Assembly (NCBI GenBank): GCA_964446685.1
Contig: CAYUPO010000004.1
Span: 20,164-84,163 of the forward strand
Origin: an uncultured Gammaproteobacteria bacterium
GTDB taxonomy: Bacteria > Patescibacteriota > Microgenomatia > Daviesbacterales > UBA10151
Length of the DNA stretch: 64,000 nt
Reading direction: 5' to 3'
The notes under the pieces: generated by a model
The model's input: only the letters and a program-made list of their open reading frames with translations
Database searches by the model: none
What the model was told of the DNA's origin: nothing
Program-made: the position numbers and the translations under genes
Shown here: piece after piece, positions 41,196 through 49,161 of the stretch
Layout of the letters: every line of letters starts with the position of its first letter
Position numbering within the stretch: the stretch's first letter is position 1

Positions 41196-41266
41196 TGCCG
41201 AGTCGTCTAATGGTAGGACGACAGATTCTGGATCTGTCTATTGGGGTTCAAATCCCTGCTCGGCAA
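41196..41266 (+). tRNA. tRNA-Gln (anticodon CUG)
   Basis: Acceptor tgccgag/ctcggca, D arm cgtc-taatggtag-gacg, anticodon arm acaga-ttCTGga-tctgt, T arm tgggg-ttcaaat-ccctg; no encoded CCA. Confidence 0.7.
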
Positions 41267-41311
41267 CAAGATTAATTTCATAAACTGCAATGAACGAAGT
41301 TCAAGCAGCAA

Positions 41312-41389
41312 CGACAGATTCTGGATCTGTCTACTTCCGCAGGAAGGAGGAGTTTACTCCTCATTGGGGTTCAAATCCCTGCTCGGCAA
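41312..41389 (+). repeat. partial duplicate of the tRNA-Gln 3' half with a 30-nt insertion (att-like scar)
   Basis: acagattctggatctgtcta + cttccgcaggaaggaggagtttactcctca + ttggggttcaaatccctgctcggcaacaa. There is no complementary 5' acceptor strand upstream. Confidence 0.6.
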
Positions 41390-41507
41390 CAAAGGCTTAT
41401 TTGATCACCATTTGCGAAATTATAGCGATTTTGGGGTTGAGGCTGTGTTAATATACCTCAACTAGATCTTTTGAAATAAAGCATAATTGAACAGCATTTA
41501 TGTGGGA

Positions 41508-42014
41508 TTATATTTTGTTAAACCTTATAAGAGAATCATAAGGTTTAACACCAGTTTCAATTCGTTCAGGGATATCATAAGGTGAGTGAACAACTAAAAA
41601 TTCCAAATTTTTGAACTTTTCTGGCAACTCATGTCCCAGGTTTGTTGAATTTATCCCATTCCATAAATACCAATAACCAACCTTTCCGGACTTATAATCA
41701 ACGAATGCAGATATAAACTCTGGAAATATAAAATCTTTAACTTCGCTATGACCAACAATCTTCCATAAACCTATTTTGATAGCAGCCATCAATCCAGTTA
41801 TTACAGGTGGAAAAAGTTCTTTTCTTGCAATAATGTCTTCAATTGGAATCTGCTCTTCTAAATTGGTAATCAGATCAAAAACTTTTATTAGTGGACCATT
41901 TTTTGAATCCCAAAAGACATATTGTCCAAAAGCCTTTTTATTGTTTGACAAAGGAATTTCAAAAATATCACCCACTTTAATAAATTTATTATTCATCGGC
42001 AAATTATAACCCAA
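41508..42014 (-). CDS. putative immunity protein for the orphan Rhs C-terminal toxin
   Basis: 168-aa cytoplasmic ORF immediately downstream of, and overlapping, the orphan toxin cassette. The assignment is by position only. Confidence 0.35.
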   Translation of the reverse strand: MGYNLPMNNKFIKVGDIFEIPLSNNKKAFGQYVFWDSKNGPLIKVFDLITNLEEQIPIEDIIARKELFPPVITGLMAAIKIGLWKIVGHSEVKDFIFPEFISAFVDYKSGKVGYWYLWNGINSTNLGHELPEKFKNLEFLVVHSPYDIPERIETGVKPYDSLIRFNKI

Positions 42015-42540
42015 CTCTATTTAAAATATCACTTCCTTTTGTAACTGATTCATTATATATAGGGTTTTGAGGTGAAATACTGTTGATTTTGTTCAATAAG
42101 TTTCCAAGTCCGCTATTTTCAATTAATACTTGTTCAACTGCTTTAGCATCAGATCTTGTTAATCCGGTTAATCCTGGAATCCCTTGAAGTGATATGCCTT
42201 TAGTTGCTAAATGTTCCGAAGCTCTTCTTGCTAAATCATTAGTGATTCCATAGTAATAAGGAACTCCATTTTTAAGTGCCTGATAAACAGACACTGCTGC
42301 TTTAACCTCATTAGTACAATCACCATCTCTACATGCTGCCGCAGTACAGACGGAGCCAAGTTTTAGAAGTCCTCCAACAAACTGACCTGAAGGATCTGAT
42401 AGATTAATAGGATCAGTATTTGCAAAATTGTACCCATTTTGTGTATTAGGCTGATTAATGATACCTTCAACAGGATCTTTTGAGATAAATCCTCCTATTG
42501 TTGGGTCATAGTAGCAGATCTTTGTAAAAATTATAAATAC
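42004..42540 (-). CDS. orphan Rhs C-terminal cassette: core-end motif plus GIY-YIG-like nuclease toxin domain (no N-terminal body, no ATG at the 5' edge)
   Basis: The reverse-strand reading frame gives YYDPTIGGFISKDPVEGIINQPNTQNGYNFANTDPINLSDPSG, paralogous to the full-length Rhs core end. It is followed by VSVYQALKNGVPYYYGITNDLARRASEH...E...N, the GIY-x10-YIG-R-H-E-N pattern. Confidence 0.5.
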   Translation of the reverse strand, partial: VFIIFTKICYYDPTIGGFISKDPVEGIINQPNTQNGYNFANTDPINLSDPSGQFVGGLLKLGSVCTAAACRDGDCTNEVKAAVSVYQALKNGVPYYYGITNDLARRASEHLATKGISLQGIPGLTGLTRSDAKAVEQVLIENSGLGNLLNKINSISPQNPIYNESVTKGSDILNRVGL

Positions 42541-42554
42541 AACACCAATTGGTA

Positions 42555-42866
42555 TCAGTATATATTAAACAATATTATGCCTACAAAAAATGTCAAAAAA
42601 GCAATTATGAAGCTAAACCTTACTGCTAGAATTTCCTTTCTTAATTTATTATTTTTAAGATTTTTAGAAAAAAGATCATGGTAATACATTTCAGATTCTT
42701 CTGTGGTAGTTCGCTTATAATACAAAAAGTCACTAAAACCACTATCAGGCCTTTTGTTTATTTTTCGAAGTTTTTGAAAATACTTTACCGTTGTAACAAA
42801 CAAAAGTAATCCAATACCAAAATAAACAATAAAAAATGTAATTCTTATAGTTAAACTCAGATCCAT
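42555..42866 (-). CDS. small two-transmembrane-helix membrane protein, putative immunity protein of the full-length Rhs toxin
   Basis: 103 aa with two hydrophobic helices, directly downstream of the rhs gene. Confidence 0.4.
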   Translation of the reverse strand: MDLSLTIRITFFIVYFGIGLLLFVTTVKYFQKLRKINKRPDSGFSDFLYYKRTTTEESEMYYHDLFSKNLKNNKLRKEILAVRFSFIIAFLTFFVGIILFNIY

Positions 42867-42888
42867 ATAATCGCTTTATAAAACTTAT

Positions 42889-45800
42889 TTAGAATAGAAC
42901 AAATAAGGCATCTTTAACAGCCTCTAAAAATGTATATTTAGACGTATACTCAATTCCGGCAGGTTTAACATCAACAGGTAAGGCACCGATTCCTCCACTG
43001 ATTCCCATATTAGTTTGGTTTAACTGCTTAGTAATGGGATCAAAATTACCTTGCCCAGTAACCCCTACACGCACAGGAAAAGGAAGATCAATAGAACCTC
43101 CTGATACTACACTCATTCCATGGAGATCTGACATTTTTGAGGCAGATTTGCTATTTAACCAAGTAATATCTCCTCCTAGTGCAATATTCGGATTTGCACC
43201 AAAACTAACTGATTTTGTAGCCCCAACCTGCCAGTTATCCCCAACACCAATACATCTTTGTGTCGAGACATAGCCTCCTGCACCAGCAGAACAGCTAAAA
43301 CATATACCATTTACGGCTAACCCTGAGGGATCTGACAGATTAACTGGATCACCATTTGCAAAGTTGTATCCATTCTGAGTTTGTGGATTTGTTAAGATTC
43401 CTTCAACTGGATCCTTAGAGATAAAGCCTCCTGTGGCCGGGTCGTAGTACCGGGCTCTCATGAAATAGAGGTTTGTTTTGTCATCCAGATCTTCACCTTT
43501 ATATTGGAAATTAGCTGCTGGACCTCCGGTGAGGGAGTTACCGAAGGCATCATATGTATAAGCCTGAATATTGCTACCACCTGCTCCAACTACAAATCTG
43601 GTATTTCCCAGTCCATCCTCCAGATAGTATTTTCTATCAGAGTATCCATCTTTTCCTTCACTAACAAGCCCTACACCATAAATATAACTTGATGAATTAT
43701 TGTTTACATCAACCGTATACAAAACTTTCGACAAGTCACCCGAATTATCATTCACATATTTTAATACTGTAGTTGCTCCGGCTTTCTCAGCAATTCTATT
43801 ACCTTTTCCATCATAGACATATCCGGCATTCTCTCCAGTTGCTGGATTATTGAAACTGATTAATTTATTTTCAAAGTTGTATCCAAAAGATTTTCCATTG
43901 CCCGCTGTAGTGGAATTGGTTCTATTACCATTGTTATCGTAGGCATAAATAGTGCTTCCCTGGGTCGTCAACTGATTATCATTATTGTATGCATAATTTA
44001 TCTGTTGCCCCTGTTTTGTACTTGTCAGCCGATTTCCAACTTTATCATAAGTGTAGCCAAATGAATTATTGTTTGGGTAAGTTGCAGTTATCAAACGCAT
44101 CAGGTTGTCATAAGCAAATGTTGTTTGAGTATTTTCAGGGGATGTGACCTGATTATATTCAAGTTTAACCTGAGCTCCACCTCCCCATTCAAAATATTCC
44201 ATCACAATATTATGTGTACCTGCTGTTAGATTTTTATATACTGAATAAGTTGTTGGAGACTGTCCTCTCCATCCATCTAATACCTTTTCTCCGTCTATAA
44301 ATAGTCTAACCCCATCATCTCCGGTTGCTTTAAACTGATACATACCTGCAGCAAAATTTTGAGCTTTAGTCCATCTGGCTACAAAGTAATCCGATGTCAA
44401 TGAAGGATCTGGTGAAGATCCATCCCAGTTAAAGTTAATGTTTGCATCATTTCTTGAAAATGTCGGAGCTGTGTTTGGAAAGACAAAACCTGAATCAGTC
44501 GCAACATTCCAATATTGACCGGAAAAACCACTATCTGCTCCTGAGAGCTGAGTCATATCGAACTTAGCCACAGCACCCCAACCATCCTCATAGTATTCCA
44601 TAACTACTGTATGATTACCGGAAGTCAGACTTTTATCAGCAGTATAAGTTGTAGGGCCCTGATTGATCCATTTATCAATAATTCTTTCCCCATCAACATA
44701 CAGTCTAACTCCATCATCAGCAGTCACTTTAAACTGGTACACTCCAGCAGATAAGTTAGCTGTTTTAGTCCACTTTGCCATAAATCGATCAGTATCAATA
44801 AGAGGCTCAGGTGAGTTACCTTGCCAGTCGAAGTTAATAGTTGAATCTGTCCTGGTTAATTGGGGAGTGGTAGACGGTATTGTAAAAGAAGTTCCTGACC
44901 CTAAATTCCAATACTGTCCGGTAAAATTGGTCATTGTTGAAGTTGTAGAAATCTGACTAATATCAAGTTTTGCCAATGCACCCCAAGCGTTTTCGTAGTA
45001 TTCCATAATAATTGTATGGTTACCTGCTGCCAAATTTTTATTTATTGAATAAGTAGTAGGACCTTGGTCAACCCATTTATCAATCACTTTTTCTCCATCT
45101 ATAAATAACCTGACTCCATCATCTCCAGTTACGCTAAATTGATAATTTCCGGCAGTCAGATTGGTTGTCTTAGTCCATCTGGCTACAAAGTTGTCTACAT
45201 TAATACCAGCTGCCGGAGAATTTCCTCCCCAATCAAAGTTCACCGTTGTATCAGTTCTGGTGAGATTTGGTGTAGTAGTTGGAATTACCGGATTACTTCC
45301 TGCAGGTACATTCCAGTATTGACCTGTAAATCCCGTAATTGTTGCCTCAAGTTGCGTTACCTCCAATTTAGCGACAGCATCTCCACCATTCTCATAATAT
45401 TCCATTATCACCGTGTGATTACCAGCAGTTAGATTTTTTTCAATTGTTTCTGATGTAGTACCCTGGTCAACCCATTTATTAATAACCTGTTGCCCATCTA
45501 TAAACAACCTAAAACCATCATCACCGGTAACTTTAAAACTATAATTCCCGGCTGCAAAATTTGCTGTTTTCGTCCAGCGAGCAACAAAATTATCAGTATT
45601 AATCGGTGATCCAGGTGTTCCCCCTGCCCAGTTAAAGTTAACCGTGTTATCAGTTCGGGATAATTGCGCGCTAGTTGAAGGAATTGCCGGACTACCACCA
45701 CCTGCTGTATTCCAGTACTGAGCAGAAAAGTCTTTTAGTTCAAAAACCCCAGAGGGAGGGGGAGTTGATAGGCTTGTAGGTATTACTGTTGCATCCAGTA

Positions 45801-48800
45801 ATGAATTTTCGGTAACGGCTGTGATATTTCCAAGATTATTTCTAGTGTAATTAAATTTTGCCAGTGCAATATTTCCCTGTAGATGAGAAACTTCAGTTAT
45901 TTTATTGGCATTATCATATTGGTAATTTGTTTTTATTCCATTTGGATAAGTTCTTGAAGACAAGGTACTATTTTTATTATATTGATAATTAGTCTGCCCA
46001 CCGTTCCAATCATTTATATTGAGTAATCTTCCAGATCCATCATAATTATAAGAAACAGATCGGCTATCCGGATAAGTTATCTTGGTCAGATTATTCGCCA
46101 TATCATATTCATATTGAACCATAGCATTATTTGAATCCTTAGCAGAAATTAAACGATCAAAGACATCATAGGTATATGTTGTTGTTCCTGAAGGATCTAT
46201 CATCGTCAGAAGATTGCCCCGGTTATCATATGTGTATGAAATATTTGTTGTGTTAGGATAGTTTATTTTTTTCAGTCTATTTAGACTGTCATATTCATAA
46301 GTTGTAGTTTGGTTGTTACTATCTATTCTTTTGCTGATATTTCCCACCTGATCATATTCCCATTTCATTACTTTCCCCAAAGGAGTCGTGCTCTGAGTTC
46401 GCTGATTTAATTTGTCATATGCAAATTGAGTAGTTCTGTTTAAAGCGTCTTGCTTGGAAGTTATATTCTGGTATTGATCATATCCATAATTTGTTACTCC
46501 ACTTAGCGCGTCGGTCACTGAATTAAGACTTTGGTTCGCGTTATAACTTAACTGCGTTGAAGAATTATTAGGCTCAGTTATCCTGATTAATTTATTCTCA
46601 GCATTAAATACATTTGTAGTTGTTCCCAAAGAAGTAACAGAAGTCAGCAGATTATTATTGTTATCATATGTAAACGCTGTGGTTTTATTATCAGGGTCTT
46701 TGACCAAAGTTAACCTACCCAAAGTGTCATATGTATAGGTTGTAATATTTGACTGGGGATCTACAGAAGTCAAAATATTATTTAAGCTATCTCTTGTATA
46801 TGCTGCTGTTTTATTAAGCGGATCTGTTACACCAATTAATTGTCCTTTTGGATTGTATGAATATTTAGTGACTTTTGATCCCTCAGTTGTCTGCACCAAA
46901 TTGCCTGCTTGGTCATAACTATAGCTGGTAATTTTATTTCCACTATATCTTTGGTCAGTTGTTTTTGTTACATTATTTTTCACGTCATATTCAAAATTAA
47001 CACTAACCCCTGCAGGATCTTTTTTAGAAACAACATTTCCATTTGCATCATAATTAAAAGTAGAAATGTTTCCTTTTTTATCCTTTACAGTGAGAGGAGC
47101 GAACTCCGTTCCGTAGGTATATTCCTGTGCGTTATTTAAAGCATCCTGCTCTTTAAGAACTCTTACTTTATTATCAAAAATAGTCTTTCCCACCCGACCT
47201 TGATTATCTGATGAAGTAACAGTATTGGTAGTATTATCATAAGCGTATGTAACTATTTTTCCGTTAGCATCTTTTTGTGTGAGTAGCCGACCATCAGCAT
47301 TATAAGTATTAGTCAACACTAGCTGATTTAATCGATTAGTAATGGTTAGTAAACGATTATTGCTATCGTAAGCATATTTTGTTGCGCTACCTTTTGGATC
47401 ATTGACTGAAGTTAAGTTTCCTAAAGAGTCATAACCATAAGTTGTAACTCTTCCAGCCCAATCAGTAATAATATTTACTAATCCAGTAGTTGCGTTATAA
47501 GCCAAATTCAAATAATGGTTATTATCATCTTTTATCTGTGTCAGCTTACTATTACCGTCATAATAATAACTAATTTTATTCCCATTTTTATCTTTAATCT
47601 GTGTTAGTTTAAGTGAGGCATCAAAAATATACTCTGTTTGATCTATTGTTCTGGCAAAGTAACTTCCATCAGGCTTAATAAAAAATTTAGTATGAAAAGC
47701 AGGGTCTAAGGCAGTGTATTCACCACCACAATATCGATACTCAAATGTTTCTCTTTTACCATCCTGAAATGTTAAAGCAACTTTTCTATATCCATAGCCT
47801 TCATTTGGGCATCCAAGTTTTTCATCCCAACCCCAGTATGTTTGAGTCAAACTAGCTGGAAATAAATCCCATCCATTACCTATACTATTTTGAGCACTAC
47901 TATAAGAATTATATGCTCTGTTCAACTGCAATGATAAATCATTACTAACAGAAGTTGAAAAATCAGAAACTGCGGTAGAATACGATCCTACACTTCTAAA
48001 CGCCTCCGCTTCCACTGCAACTGAATCATAAGTTTGACCATTGCTGACAAAAGTCCAATGAACATCTTCTTTATTAACTGACTGAGATTGAGAAGCACTT
48101 TTTAAAGTACTAGCCATCCCAGAATCAGCAATATACGTATTGGCAGTTGAGAAATCCGCACCACCGCTAATTTGAGTATCGGTATTCCCTTGAGTCACCC
48201 ACGGAGTATATAAACGTGGTTTAGTTCGGGCCGTAGGATTATAGTTTGGCTGATAATTCTTTGCCCATTCAAAATTATTAGCAATTCCGGCATCTTTGAT
48301 CCATTTAATAACTCCAACAATTTGAGACAACTGTTTCGTTTGTAAATATGATGGTGATTCCTTAGCAAATTCATCATAAAGATCAGTTTGCTGTTGAGCA
48401 AAAGCAATCGCTGCATTGTTCCACTGTGGTGAGTTAGCTGCACTTGTTGGTTCTGTTAAAATCTGCATTTTAACTTGATCAAAAATAAAAGATTTTGACA
48501 CATCATCTTTTTTCAAACTTACTAGTTTTGGTGTAATCCACCATCTAGATCCTGGTGATCCAGAAGTAATTCCATTCTCTTGATATCTTTGCCAAAAAGA
48601 TTTGTAGCCTGCTACAGTAGATACAAGTACAGAACCATCAGCATTATAACCTTGACTATATTGTTTCATTTTATAATCAGCATCAAGAATAGTTTGCCCA
48701 AATTTAGTATCTTCTAAACCATCACTAAATATGACCTGCATTGGTTGAGTACGATTAGTATCATTGACTTGCGTTTCAAGACTTACAAATGGAATTGCAT

Positions 48801-49161
48801 TATTAAAAATAAGCGACCTAATAGTTACGGCTAAATCATCTTTATTAAACTTTGGTGCAGATGTATTTGTTTTTCCAATAAAAACAATTCGGTCAAGAGT
48901 ACTATCGTAATAAGCTCCAGTATACTCTGACATATTTGCCAAAAATGTAGCCGCTTGGTTTAATGCAACTCCTCCCGGTCTGACACCTGGAGCACCAACT
49001 GCTCCCCCTACTCCTCCACATGACTGAGCATTTACTGAAGAAGGACTTATTGAAAGCAACAAGTAATTTGAAATTGAAGTTAAAGTCAGAACCAATATCA
49101 AGGAAAGTGAAATAGTAGAATTAAAAACTTTGCTTAATTTACTGCTTTTTTTATTTATCAT
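42889..49161 (-). CDS. Rhs/YD-repeat polymorphic toxin (2090 aa): signal peptide, YD repeats, four tandem PA14 domains, Rhs core with DPSGL, variable C-terminal toxin domain
   Basis: Many YxYDxxGN(L/R) repeats; four ~135-aa repeats (F(T/S)GQYWN...DFxA(R/K)WTKTxN...GDDGxRLxxDG...); core end ARYYDPATGGFISKDPVEGILTNPQTQNGYNFANGDPVNLSDPSGL, then a ~150-aa Gly-rich tail. Confidence 0.9.
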   Translation of the reverse strand: MINKKSSKLSKVFNSTISLSLILVLTLTSISNYLLLSISPSSVNAQSCGGVGGAVGAPGVRPGGVALNQAATFLANMSEYTGAYYDSTLDRIVFIGKTNTSAPKFNKDDLAVTIRSLIFNNAIPFVSLETQVNDTNRTQPMQVIFSDGLEDTKFGQTILDADYKMKQYSQGYNADGSVLVSTVAGYKSFWQRYQENGITSGSPGSRWWITPKLVSLKKDDVSKSFIFDQVKMQILTEPTSAANSPQWNNAAIAFAQQQTDLYDEFAKESPSYLQTKQLSQIVGVIKWIKDAGIANNFEWAKNYQPNYNPTARTKPRLYTPWVTQGNTDTQISGGADFSTANTYIADSGMASTLKSASQSQSVNKEDVHWTFVSNGQTYDSVAVEAEAFRSVGSYSTAVSDFSTSVSNDLSLQLNRAYNSYSSAQNSIGNGWDLFPASLTQTYWGWDEKLGCPNEGYGYRKVALTFQDGKRETFEYRYCGGEYTALDPAFHTKFFIKPDGSYFARTIDQTEYIFDASLKLTQIKDKNGNKISYYYDGNSKLTQIKDDNNHYLNLAYNATTGLVNIITDWAGRVTTYGYDSLGNLTSVNDPKGSATKYAYDSNNRLLTITNRLNQLVLTNTYNADGRLLTQKDANGKIVTYAYDNTTNTVTSSDNQGRVGKTIFDNKVRVLKEQDALNNAQEYTYGTEFAPLTVKDKKGNISTFNYDANGNVVSKKDPAGVSVNFEYDVKNNVTKTTDQRYSGNKITSYSYDQAGNLVQTTEGSKVTKYSYNPKGQLIGVTDPLNKTAAYTRDSLNNILTSVDPQSNITTYTYDTLGRLTLVKDPDNKTTAFTYDNNNNLLTSVTSLGTTTNVFNAENKLIRITEPNNSSTQLSYNANQSLNSVTDALSGVTNYGYDQYQNITSKQDALNRTTQFAYDKLNQRTQSTTPLGKVMKWEYDQVGNISKRIDSNNQTTTYEYDSLNRLKKINYPNTTNISYTYDNRGNLLTMIDPSGTTTYTYDVFDRLISAKDSNNAMVQYEYDMANNLTKITYPDSRSVSYNYDGSGRLLNINDWNGGQTNYQYNKNSTLSSRTYPNGIKTNYQYDNANKITEVSHLQGNIALAKFNYTRNNLGNITAVTENSLLDATVIPTSLSTPPPSGVFELKDFSAQYWNTAGGGSPAIPSTSAQLSRTDNTVNFNWAGGTPGSPINTDNFVARWTKTANFAAGNYSFKVTGDDGFRLFIDGQQVINKWVDQGTTSETIEKNLTAGNHTVIMEYYENGGDAVAKLEVTQLEATITGFTGQYWNVPAGSNPVIPTTTPNLTRTDTTVNFDWGGNSPAAGINVDNFVARWTKTTNLTAGNYQFSVTGDDGVRLFIDGEKVIDKWVDQGPTTYSINKNLAAGNHTIIMEYYENAWGALAKLDISQISTTSTMTNFTGQYWNLGSGTSFTIPSTTPQLTRTDSTINFDWQGNSPEPLIDTDRFMAKWTKTANLSAGVYQFKVTADDGVRLYVDGERIIDKWINQGPTTYTADKSLTSGNHTVVMEYYEDGWGAVAKFDMTQLSGADSGFSGQYWNVATDSGFVFPNTAPTFSRNDANINFNWDGSSPDPSLTSDYFVARWTKAQNFAAGMYQFKATGDDGVRLFIDGEKVLDGWRGQSPTTYSVYKNLTAGTHNIVMEYFEWGGGAQVKLEYNQVTSPENTQTTFAYDNLMRLITATYPNNNSFGYTYDKVGNRLTSTKQGQQINYAYNNDNQLTTQGSTIYAYDNNGNRTNSTTAGNGKSFGYNFENKLISFNNPATGENAGYVYDGKGNRIAEKAGATTVLKYVNDNSGDLSKVLYTVDVNNNSSSYIYGVGLVSEGKDGYSDRKYYLEDGLGNTRFVVGAGGSNIQAYTYDAFGNSLTGGPAANFQYKGEDLDDKTNLYFMRARYYDPATGGFISKDPVEGILTNPQTQNGYNFANGDPVNLSDPSGLAVNGICFSCSAGAGGYVSTQRCIGVGDNWQVGATKSVSFGANPNIALGGDITWLNSKSASKMSDLHGMSVVSGGSIDLPFPVRVGVTGQGNFDPITKQLNQTNMGISGGIGALPVDVKPAGIEYTSKYTFLEAVKDALFVLF

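Follow-up and report, generated by a model that had tools for sequence, protein, structure and literature searches.

What is encoded by a frame that has no start codon of its own, begins like the end of an Rhs protein and lies behind a complete rhs gene, and is it expressed? Such a frame is found in a 64,000-nt window of an uncultured bacterium placed in the Patescibacteriota by GTDB (assembly GCA_964446685.1, contig CAYUPO010000004.1, positions 20,164 to 84,163); all coordinates below are counted from the first letter of this window. According to the ORF list, Pfam and NCBIfam, the minus strand carries, in this order, a resident full-length rhs gene, an open reading frame (ORF) of 103 aa, a start-less Rhs core end with an alternative C-terminal toxin domain (tip), and an immunity gene of the Imm26 family. 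The same order is present in four independent other assemblies at 99.9-100% nucleotide identity. The region is very probably an orphan Rhs toxin/immunity module, composed of a GIY-YIG (URI-fold) tip of the Tox-URI1 type and its cognate Imm26, and most likely silent. What the data show is the anatomy of the locus, the family membership of the tip (sequence, motif and predicted fold) and the conserved linkage of toxin and Imm26.

The orphan frame (42004..42564, minus strand) comprises 186 codons plus the stop codon, and its limits are set by the stops at 42567-42565 and 42006-42004. Opening after the TAA at 42567-42565, it reads YILIPIGVVFIIFTKICYYDPTIGGFISKDPVEGIINQPNTQNGYNFANTDPINLSDPSGQFVGG...AAVSVYQALKNGVPYYYGITNDLARRASEH...AKAVEQVLIENSGLGNLLNKINSIS...GL followed by the stop. 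The peptide quoted in a first-pass annotation of this DNA is recovered by the minus-strand translation of 42004..42600, which contains ...YYDPTIGGFISKDPVEGIINQPNTQNGYNFANTDPINLSDPSGQFVGG...AAVSVYQALKNGVPYYYGITNDLARRASEHLATKGISLQGIPGLTGLTRSDAKAVEQVLIENSGLGNLLNKINSISPQNP...GL and the stop. The 5' part of the frame duplicates the end of the Rhs core (42386..42513, minus strand; YYDPTIGGFISKDPVEGIINQPNTQNGYNFANTDPINLSDPSG), as identified by the NCBIfam model TIGR03696 (Rhs_assc_core, E = 6e-9, 36.3 bits vs a cutoff of 32.5), by blastn and by a repeat search. Homology to the Rhs core begins at about 42513, and not at 42540, where the first-pass annotation had set the limit. About 43 of the last core codons are retained, in frame with a toxin tail of about 100 aa. 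The orphan core end terminates in DPSGQ; the resident gene has DPSGL, and the canonical motif is DPxGL. The frame thus carries the 3' end of the core without the N-terminal body or a start, lies on the same strand as, and downstream of, a full-length rhs gene and a small ORF, and precedes an immunity gene of its own. These are the features of an orphan module, and the earlier description of the frame as an orphan Rhs C-terminal cassette is borne out by them.

The tail itself (predicted Tox-URI1-type GIY-YIG nuclease domain, 42007..42294, minus strand) was assigned by Pfam, invariant alignment columns, structure prediction with AlphaFold2 (AF2), Foldseek, a profile search of PDB sequences and hhalign. 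In a Pfam scan at E ≤ 10, GIY-YIG (PF01541) was the only family matched by the window copy, with a match that covers profile positions 7-35 of 78 and, in the domain, only the initial 28 residues. Among 50 diverse members of a trimmed alignment (A2), built from homologues 40-57% identical to the window copy, PF01541 was matched by 43 at E ≤ 0.01 and by 14 at E ≤ 1e-4 (best 3.2e-7). Eight columns of this alignment are invariant in all 50 sequences (Y9, Y19, G21, R29, A55, E59, Q60 and N73), and R/K56 and H33 are nearly so. The residues at catalytic positions (Y9, Y19, G21, R29, E59 and N73) are all kept in the window copy. By residue mapping on the minus strand, the tyrosine of the GIY element (Y9) is encoded at 42283-85 and that of the YIG element (Y19) at 42253-55, followed by G21 at 42247-49, R29 at 42223-25, H33 at 42211-13, K56 at 42142-44 (within K56-A-V-E59), E59 at 42133-35 and N73 at 42091-93.

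The spacing of these residues, Y-10-Y-10-R-4-H, equals that of Y19/Y29/R39/Y43 in UvrC of Thermotoga maritima, in which we take R39 and E76 to be catalytic. The UvrC mutants used for comparison (Y19F, Y29F, Y43F and N88A) were taken from PDB titles. Four GIY-YIG proteins were among the top ten matches of the PDB-sequence profile search, namely BH0048/UPF0213 (1zg2, E = 0.016), I-TevI (1mk0, E = 0.11), UvrC (1yd6, E = 0.54) and GrxS16 (2lwf, E = 1.5), and E59 of the tail was aligned onto the catalytic glutamate of UvrC. The same search with the untrimmed alignment (A1) returned only FliF noise, and the trimmed version was used. With hhalign, the family profile reached E = 6e-5 against the N-terminus of E. 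coli UvrC and E = 6.5e-4 against residues 1-97 of I-TevI; the I-TevI stretch used agrees with the alignment from the PDB profile search.

The AF2 models reached a mean predicted local distance difference test score (pLDDT) of 80.6 for a 119-aa construct and of 89.0 for a 99-aa construct (predicted template modeling score 0.79), with secondary structure elements in the order β-β-α-β-α-α. The top five Foldseek matches in PDB were the GIY-YIG domain of UvrC for both models, with a template modeling score on the target of 0.46-0.50, a root-mean-square deviation of 2.9-3.4 Å over 70-72 columns and E-values of 0.28-0.8. In BFVD, a collection of predicted viral structures, 14 of the top 25 matches carry a name, and 12 of these are GIY-YIG or T5orf172 proteins (E = 0.006-0.2); a terminase-like protein at rank 8 and an unnamed Orf72 make up the remainder. 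The first-pass annotation had read the tail as a GIY-YIG nuclease. A Pfam profile search of the tail finds this similarity just below the gathering score, and the claim is sustained by PF01541 as the sole match, the invariant residues, the predicted fold, the Foldseek neighbors and the adjacent Imm26 gene. A Tox-URI2 domain or another toxin fold was considered and rejected, as the orphan protein drew no Pfam match at E ≤ 10 besides GIY-YIG.

Several points weigh against this assignment. The window copy scores 18.5-20.3 bits with PF01541, depending on trimming (E = 2.4e-3 to 7e-4), and remains below the gathering score of 22.6 bits. The structure-based E-values are all weak, at least 0.28 in PDB and no better than 0.006 in BFVD. 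The literature searched on the Tox-URI1 clade contains predictions only, with no biochemical characterization seen, and partners of Imm26 have been described as RNases (PMC11669294) and as URI-2 nucleases (bioRxiv 10.64898/2026.07.13.738213). The fold assignment rests on the agreement of several weak results, with no single decisive score.

Weak fold-level scores would also be expected of a tail that has the shape of a GIY-YIG domain but is not a DNA nuclease, be it an enzyme acting on RNA or a catalytically different or inactive derivative. Such a tail would likewise suit the reports that tie Imm26 to RNase toxins, and the family has an invariant C-terminal motif of its own, N-x-I-N-S-I-S...NP-x-Y, that lies outside the Pfam match. 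To our knowledge, however, the characterized GIY-YIG enzymes cleave DNA, and the canonical catalytic positions are invariant throughout the 50 diverse members, with UvrC-like spacing. Such domains have moreover been placed in the URI nuclease fold (Zhang et al. 2012, PMC3482391). A tail that is not a DNA nuclease is considered very improbable.

The predicted nuclease closely resembles a published class. Tox-URI1 (Zhang, de Souza, Anantharaman, Iyer and Aravind 2012, Biol Direct 7:18; PMC3482391) has the signature Y, YxG, R, [RK]xxE and N, which is equal to the invariant columns of the tail family. Like the family described here, Tox-URI1 forms the C-terminal tip of RHS, filamentous hemagglutinin and HINT carriers, is paired with the same Imm26 and has an equally broad phyletic spread. 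Nothing substantive differs between the two, the likeness being judged by the published signature; the Pfam output for the orphan protein holds no Tox-URI1 model. The published domain sits on carriers, whereas the copy in the window is a start-less orphan. With UvrC and I-TevI (1YCZ/1YD6 and 1MK0), the tail shares the β-β-α-β-α-α core and the positions and spacing of Tyr, Tyr-x-Gly, Arg, Glu and Asn, at about 20% sequence identity. Unlike these enzymes, it has no DNA-binding or other partner domains, and it adds the family-specific segment with the C-terminal motif given above as well as an extra C-terminal helix.

The gene following the orphan frame (41508..41996, minus strand) encodes 162 aa from an ATG at 41996, 8 nt after the toxin stop codon; an alternative TTG start at 42014 would yield 168 aa. 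The product matches Imm26 (PF15428) over profile positions 1-86 of 107, with E = 7.4e-12 and 45.9 bits vs a cutoff of 23.3. Of the 183 loci that encode relatives of the toxin, 80 were fetched. In 52 of 78 other loci, the ORF directly 3' of the toxin is a homologue of the Imm26 protein in the window as detected by phmmer, and with a hidden Markov model built from these matches the number rises to 71 of 78. The pairing of toxin and Imm26 is therefore conserved across phyla. For Tox-URI1, Zhang et al. (2012; PMC3482391) list Imm26 among the immunity families, alongside Imm14, Imm44 and Imm51. As judged from genomic co-occurrence, the 71 of 78 loci support this original pairing of Imm26 with Tox-URI1 over the RNase and URI-2 partners proposed elsewhere.

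The distribution of the toxin family was assessed at several scales. A search with the 126-aa tail yielded 26 homologues (E down to 2e-24; the identical 96-aa call was left out), several of which are named filamentous hemagglutinin or RHS-repeat protein by their source. The 183 loci, obtained from a scan of one genome per species (best identity 57%), are spread over Chloroflexota, Pseudomonadota, Bacteroidota, Planctomycetota, Acidobacteriota, Bacillota, Patescibacteria and others. When the profile was searched exhaustively, 2,987 representatives clustered at 50% identity were matched at E ≤ 1e-3, 1,686 of them at E ≤ 1e-10. In every listed match of more than 900 aa, the domain ends a few residues from the C-terminus, e.g. 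at positions 2290-2425 of 2427 or 1701-1823 of 1826. Frames of at least 1000 aa end in a copy of the domain at 31 of the 80 fetched loci, and about 20 of the 80 have short open frames that are not cut by a contig end. Four loci have no start codon before the match (L025, L037, L043 and L045). Carriers include Rhs core ends (L016, L074), HINT-type junctions (L064, L070, L072) and others. By its position in these proteins, the tail behaves as a polymorphic-toxin tip. With about 3,000 representative clusters and only predictions in the literature searched, this very common clade would reward biochemical study.

Toxin and Imm26 alike have their closest relatives in Anaerolineae/Chloroflexota (L005-L015, L046 and L077). 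A pre-toxin linker, ADGD(P/C)TNE, is common to these loci and the window copy (CRDGDCTNE). In Anaerolinea thermolimosa, two identical start-less short copies are present (L007, L008). Linker and relatives hint, at the level of sequence, at a donor lineage or at the phylogenetic neighborhood of this genome of about 35% GC.

If the tip is a nuclease, the next question is whether it is produced. On a full-length carrier, be it Rhs, hemagglutinin-like or HINT-type, the domain would be delivered into a neighboring cell. Its most likely action in that cell would be cleavage of DNA by the one-metal mechanism of GIY-YIG enzymes, in which Tyr/Tyr/Arg would position the scissile phosphate and Glu and Asn would hold the metal, and Imm26 would bind the toxin domain and block it in the producer. 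From knowledge of the family we infer these steps of delivery, cleavage and neutralization, and with them nuclease activity and DNA as the target. In the window, the toxin is most likely neither made nor exported, because the frame has neither a canonical start nor a delivery scaffold. Provided that the immunity gene is expressed, as we presume, the locus would probably confer mainly Imm26-based protection from neighbors carrying the same toxin.

The first in-frame ATG, GTG or TTG of the orphan frame is located at 42294, inside the toxin domain. The first-pass annotation had stated that the cassette has no start of its own and picks up only an internal methionine there; the position is correct, and the codon is GTG (valine). 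Upstream of it, 90 codons are open, for which the probability by chance is about 0.003 from base composition. Two observations argue against complete silence. The toxin frame with its open upstream codons has stayed intact next to a decayed remnant (described below), which is unexpected for a purely silent relic, and gene callers annotate a 96-aa product from GTG 42294 in NCBI, JGI and Logan data.

The GTG could be a genuine start, giving a free 96-aa GIY-YIG protein that, together with Imm26, forms a toxin-antitoxin-like addiction or defense pair in the producer. It lies exactly at the first β-strand (M/V-S-V-Y), and its product would hold the full domain. The frame is identical as well as intact in the four other assemblies, and the short distance from the toxin stop codon to the start of Imm26 would suit co-translation. 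A GAGG is present upstream, but its distance of 11 nt from the GTG is poor spacing. The open codons before the GTG encode a recognizable Rhs core end, as expected of a gene fragment and not of a designed start, and the relatives elsewhere are C-termini of 1000-2400-aa proteins or, in the four loci mentioned, short copies without any start codon. A promoter scan of 41300..43100 gave 7 promoter-like sites vs 7.7 expected from shuffled sequence and is uninformative, with no sign of enrichment; in the same interval, a terminator scan found none. Production of a free 96-aa toxin is judged unlikely. With the silent orphan module as the preferred reading, the public 96-aa "hypothetical protein" (42004..42294) would be renamed as an orphan Rhs Tox-URI1/GIY-YIG tip and its 162-aa neighbor as Imm26, which matters little beyond annotation.

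A silent tip may be brought back by recombination with the resident gene, and the first-pass annotation had described the cassette as a silent reservoir unless recombined onto the main rhs. The start-less frame without a carrier stands; the part on recombination is weakened by the comparison of the two core ends. The homologous segment of the resident gene lies at 43322..43449 (minus strand; blastn, repeat family D2), about 170 nt away from the site at 43150-43290 proposed earlier. It is identical to the orphan tract (42386..42513) at 99 of 128 nt (77%) and at 35 of 42 aa, and the two copies are direct repeats 936 nt apart. Reactivation would need a fusion to the resident rhs, which a deletion between these repeats would bring about; with the crossover, the 103-aa ORF and the resident tip would be lost and the PA14-bearing Rhs body joined to the GIY-YIG tip. 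RecA-type recombination needs about 20-30 nt of identity as a minimal efficient processing segment. The shared tract contains no exact run of more than 9 nt, which speaks against a simple reservoir. At 77% identity with such short runs, reactivation by homologous recombination is therefore doubtful, and the locus shows that divergence between orphan and resident gene can be too great for this simple route. The tract holds 29 nucleotide but only 7 amino acid differences, a ratio that suggests an origin of the orphan from a different, long-diverged rhs lineage and not from the resident gene.

These data also bear on the possibility that the toxin frame, derived from an rhs tip that was displaced or imported, is a dead relic beyond reactivation, with only Imm26 under selection and the frame intact because the event was recent. 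Exact runs well below the requirement of RecA fit such a relic, as do the junction DPSGQ in place of the canonical motif, the downstream remnant as evidence that such fragments decay here, and the four other assemblies, which are all colinear and contain no rearranged version. These four assemblies are based on short reads, however, in which rare recombinants are invisible. The frame is intact over 186 codons with every catalytic-position residue kept, and 29 nucleotide against 7 amino acid differences point to two copies that diverged over a long time, each under purifying selection, and not to decay. A dead relic is accordingly the less probable account, but one that deserves some weight.

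Intactness could also mean that the start-less frame is kept because it is used. Expression from GTG 42294 or by another non-canonical route would yield a nuclease checked by Imm26; alternatively, given a shared tract too diverged for RecA, tips could be exchanged non-homologously at this site adjacent to tRNA-Gln. We hold this to be quite unlikely. If true, a used frame with an internal start would represent an addiction or defense module derived from a polymorphic-toxin tip.

The silent orphan module agrees well with known Rhs systems. Orphan rhs-CT/rhsI modules 3' of full-length rhs genes occur in E. coli, Salmonella, Dickeya and Xanthomonas (bioRxiv 10.1101/2025.05.08.652813). As in the window, they consist of a 3'-end fragment of the core with its motif, an alternative tip and an immunity gene of its own, directly downstream of the main pair. 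Earlier studies from the groups of Koskiniemi and of Jackson reportedly describe such modules as well. The Salmonella orphan is reported to have a long tract in common with the main gene, nearly identical in sequence, and to recombine under selection; the diverged 128-nt tract described here differs in this respect.

Rhs tips annotated as GIY-YIG and followed by an immunity gene are also routinely reported for predicted PAAR-RhsA-GIY-YIG effectors of Salmonella pathogenicity island 6 (SPI-6) and for Rhs-Ct groups of Stenotrophomonas (PMC10469887, PMC11669294, bioRxiv 10.64898/2026.07.13.738213). These effectors, likened here by annotation, are full-length, PAAR-bearing and associated with the T6SS (type VI secretion system), and their immunity proteins are CdiI-like or belong to other families, in contrast to Imm26. 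Comparative genomics had revealed the pairing of toxin and immunity by 2012, the orphan anatomy is textbook Rhs biology, and the locus is an ordinary new example. Only three points are mildly unusual: the diverged recombination tract, the intact start-less frame and a series of fossils that ends at a tRNA fragment.

The resident rhs gene (42889..49161, minus strand; ORF list, Pfam and TIGR03696) encodes 2090 aa. Pfam identifies RHS_repeat (E = 2e-95) and four PA14 domains (E = 2.5e-59) in its product; four tandem repeats of about 400 nt at 44159..45603 (minus strand) correspond to the four PA14 domains within the Rhs body. The C-terminal 203 aa match TIGR03696 (E = 1.8e-15, NCBIfam) and are otherwise without a Pfam match. 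The core end reads ...YYDPATGGF...NLSDPSGL (YYDPATGGFISKDPVEGILTNPQTQNGYNFANGDPVNLSDPSGL). A signal-peptide-like segment was read from the sequence at the N-terminus, and no PAAR domain was found by Pfam. A T6SS context was considered and dropped, as Pfam gave neither PAAR in Rhs nor a T6SS family in the scanned flanking ORFs. The resident Rhs thereby differs from the Salmonella and Stenotrophomonas effectors. Its PA14 domains, its signal-like N-terminus and the lack of PAAR by Pfam suggest a Sec-exported, carbohydrate-binding protein and not a T6SS effector.

The resident tip, after DPSGL (42889..43321, minus strand), comprises about 144 Gly-rich aa and matches no Pfam or NCBIfam family. Directly 3' of the gene, the hydrophobic 103-aa ORF (42555..42866, minus strand) has no significant match in Pfam or NCBIfam and is found in the same place in the four other assemblies. 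From its position, its product is presumed to confer immunity to the resident tip; the two may form an uncharacterized, possibly membrane-acting, toxin/immunity pair. In another assembly (P0033), an Rhs variant of about 90% identity carries a diverged version of the resident tip.

Just downstream of the Imm26 gene, the Rhs core end occurs a third time, in decayed form (41403..41490, minus strand), as recovered by the repeat search (families D3 and D11), by translation and by a three-way alignment. It reads FISKDLVEVY, a stop codon and, further on, ...NRYNFANGD, with a 1-nt deletion in addition to the stop, and is cut off at 41403. From these features, the copy looks like a fossil: an older orphan that has lost both its tip and its immunity gene. 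The locus records at least three successive tips, namely the resident tip, the intact orphan and the decayed remnant. This gives a three-stage picture of Rhs tip turnover, with an active tip, an intact orphan and a decayed remnant, and the series stops at a partial duplicate of tRNA-Gln.

The intact tRNA-Gln gene (anticodon CTG; 41196..41267, plus strand) was identified by ARAGORN and by Rfam (RF00005, 58.8 bits). After a gap of 40 nt it is followed by a partial duplicate of its 3' part (41308..41392, plus strand), which adjoins the decayed remnant and was found by an exact 30-nt repeat (41240-41269 = 41363-41392) and inspection of the sequence. The duplicate consists of the anticodon arm, an insert of about 31 nt, the T arm and the 3' strand of the acceptor stem. 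It was rejected as a second tRNA gene: neither ARAGORN nor Rfam calls it, and the 5' acceptor strand and the D arm are missing. The 3' end of the tRNA occurs just twice in the window, at a distance of 123 nt, from which no island can be delimited. The tRNA-Gln duplicate and the truncated remnant next to it suggest an old integration or deletion scar.

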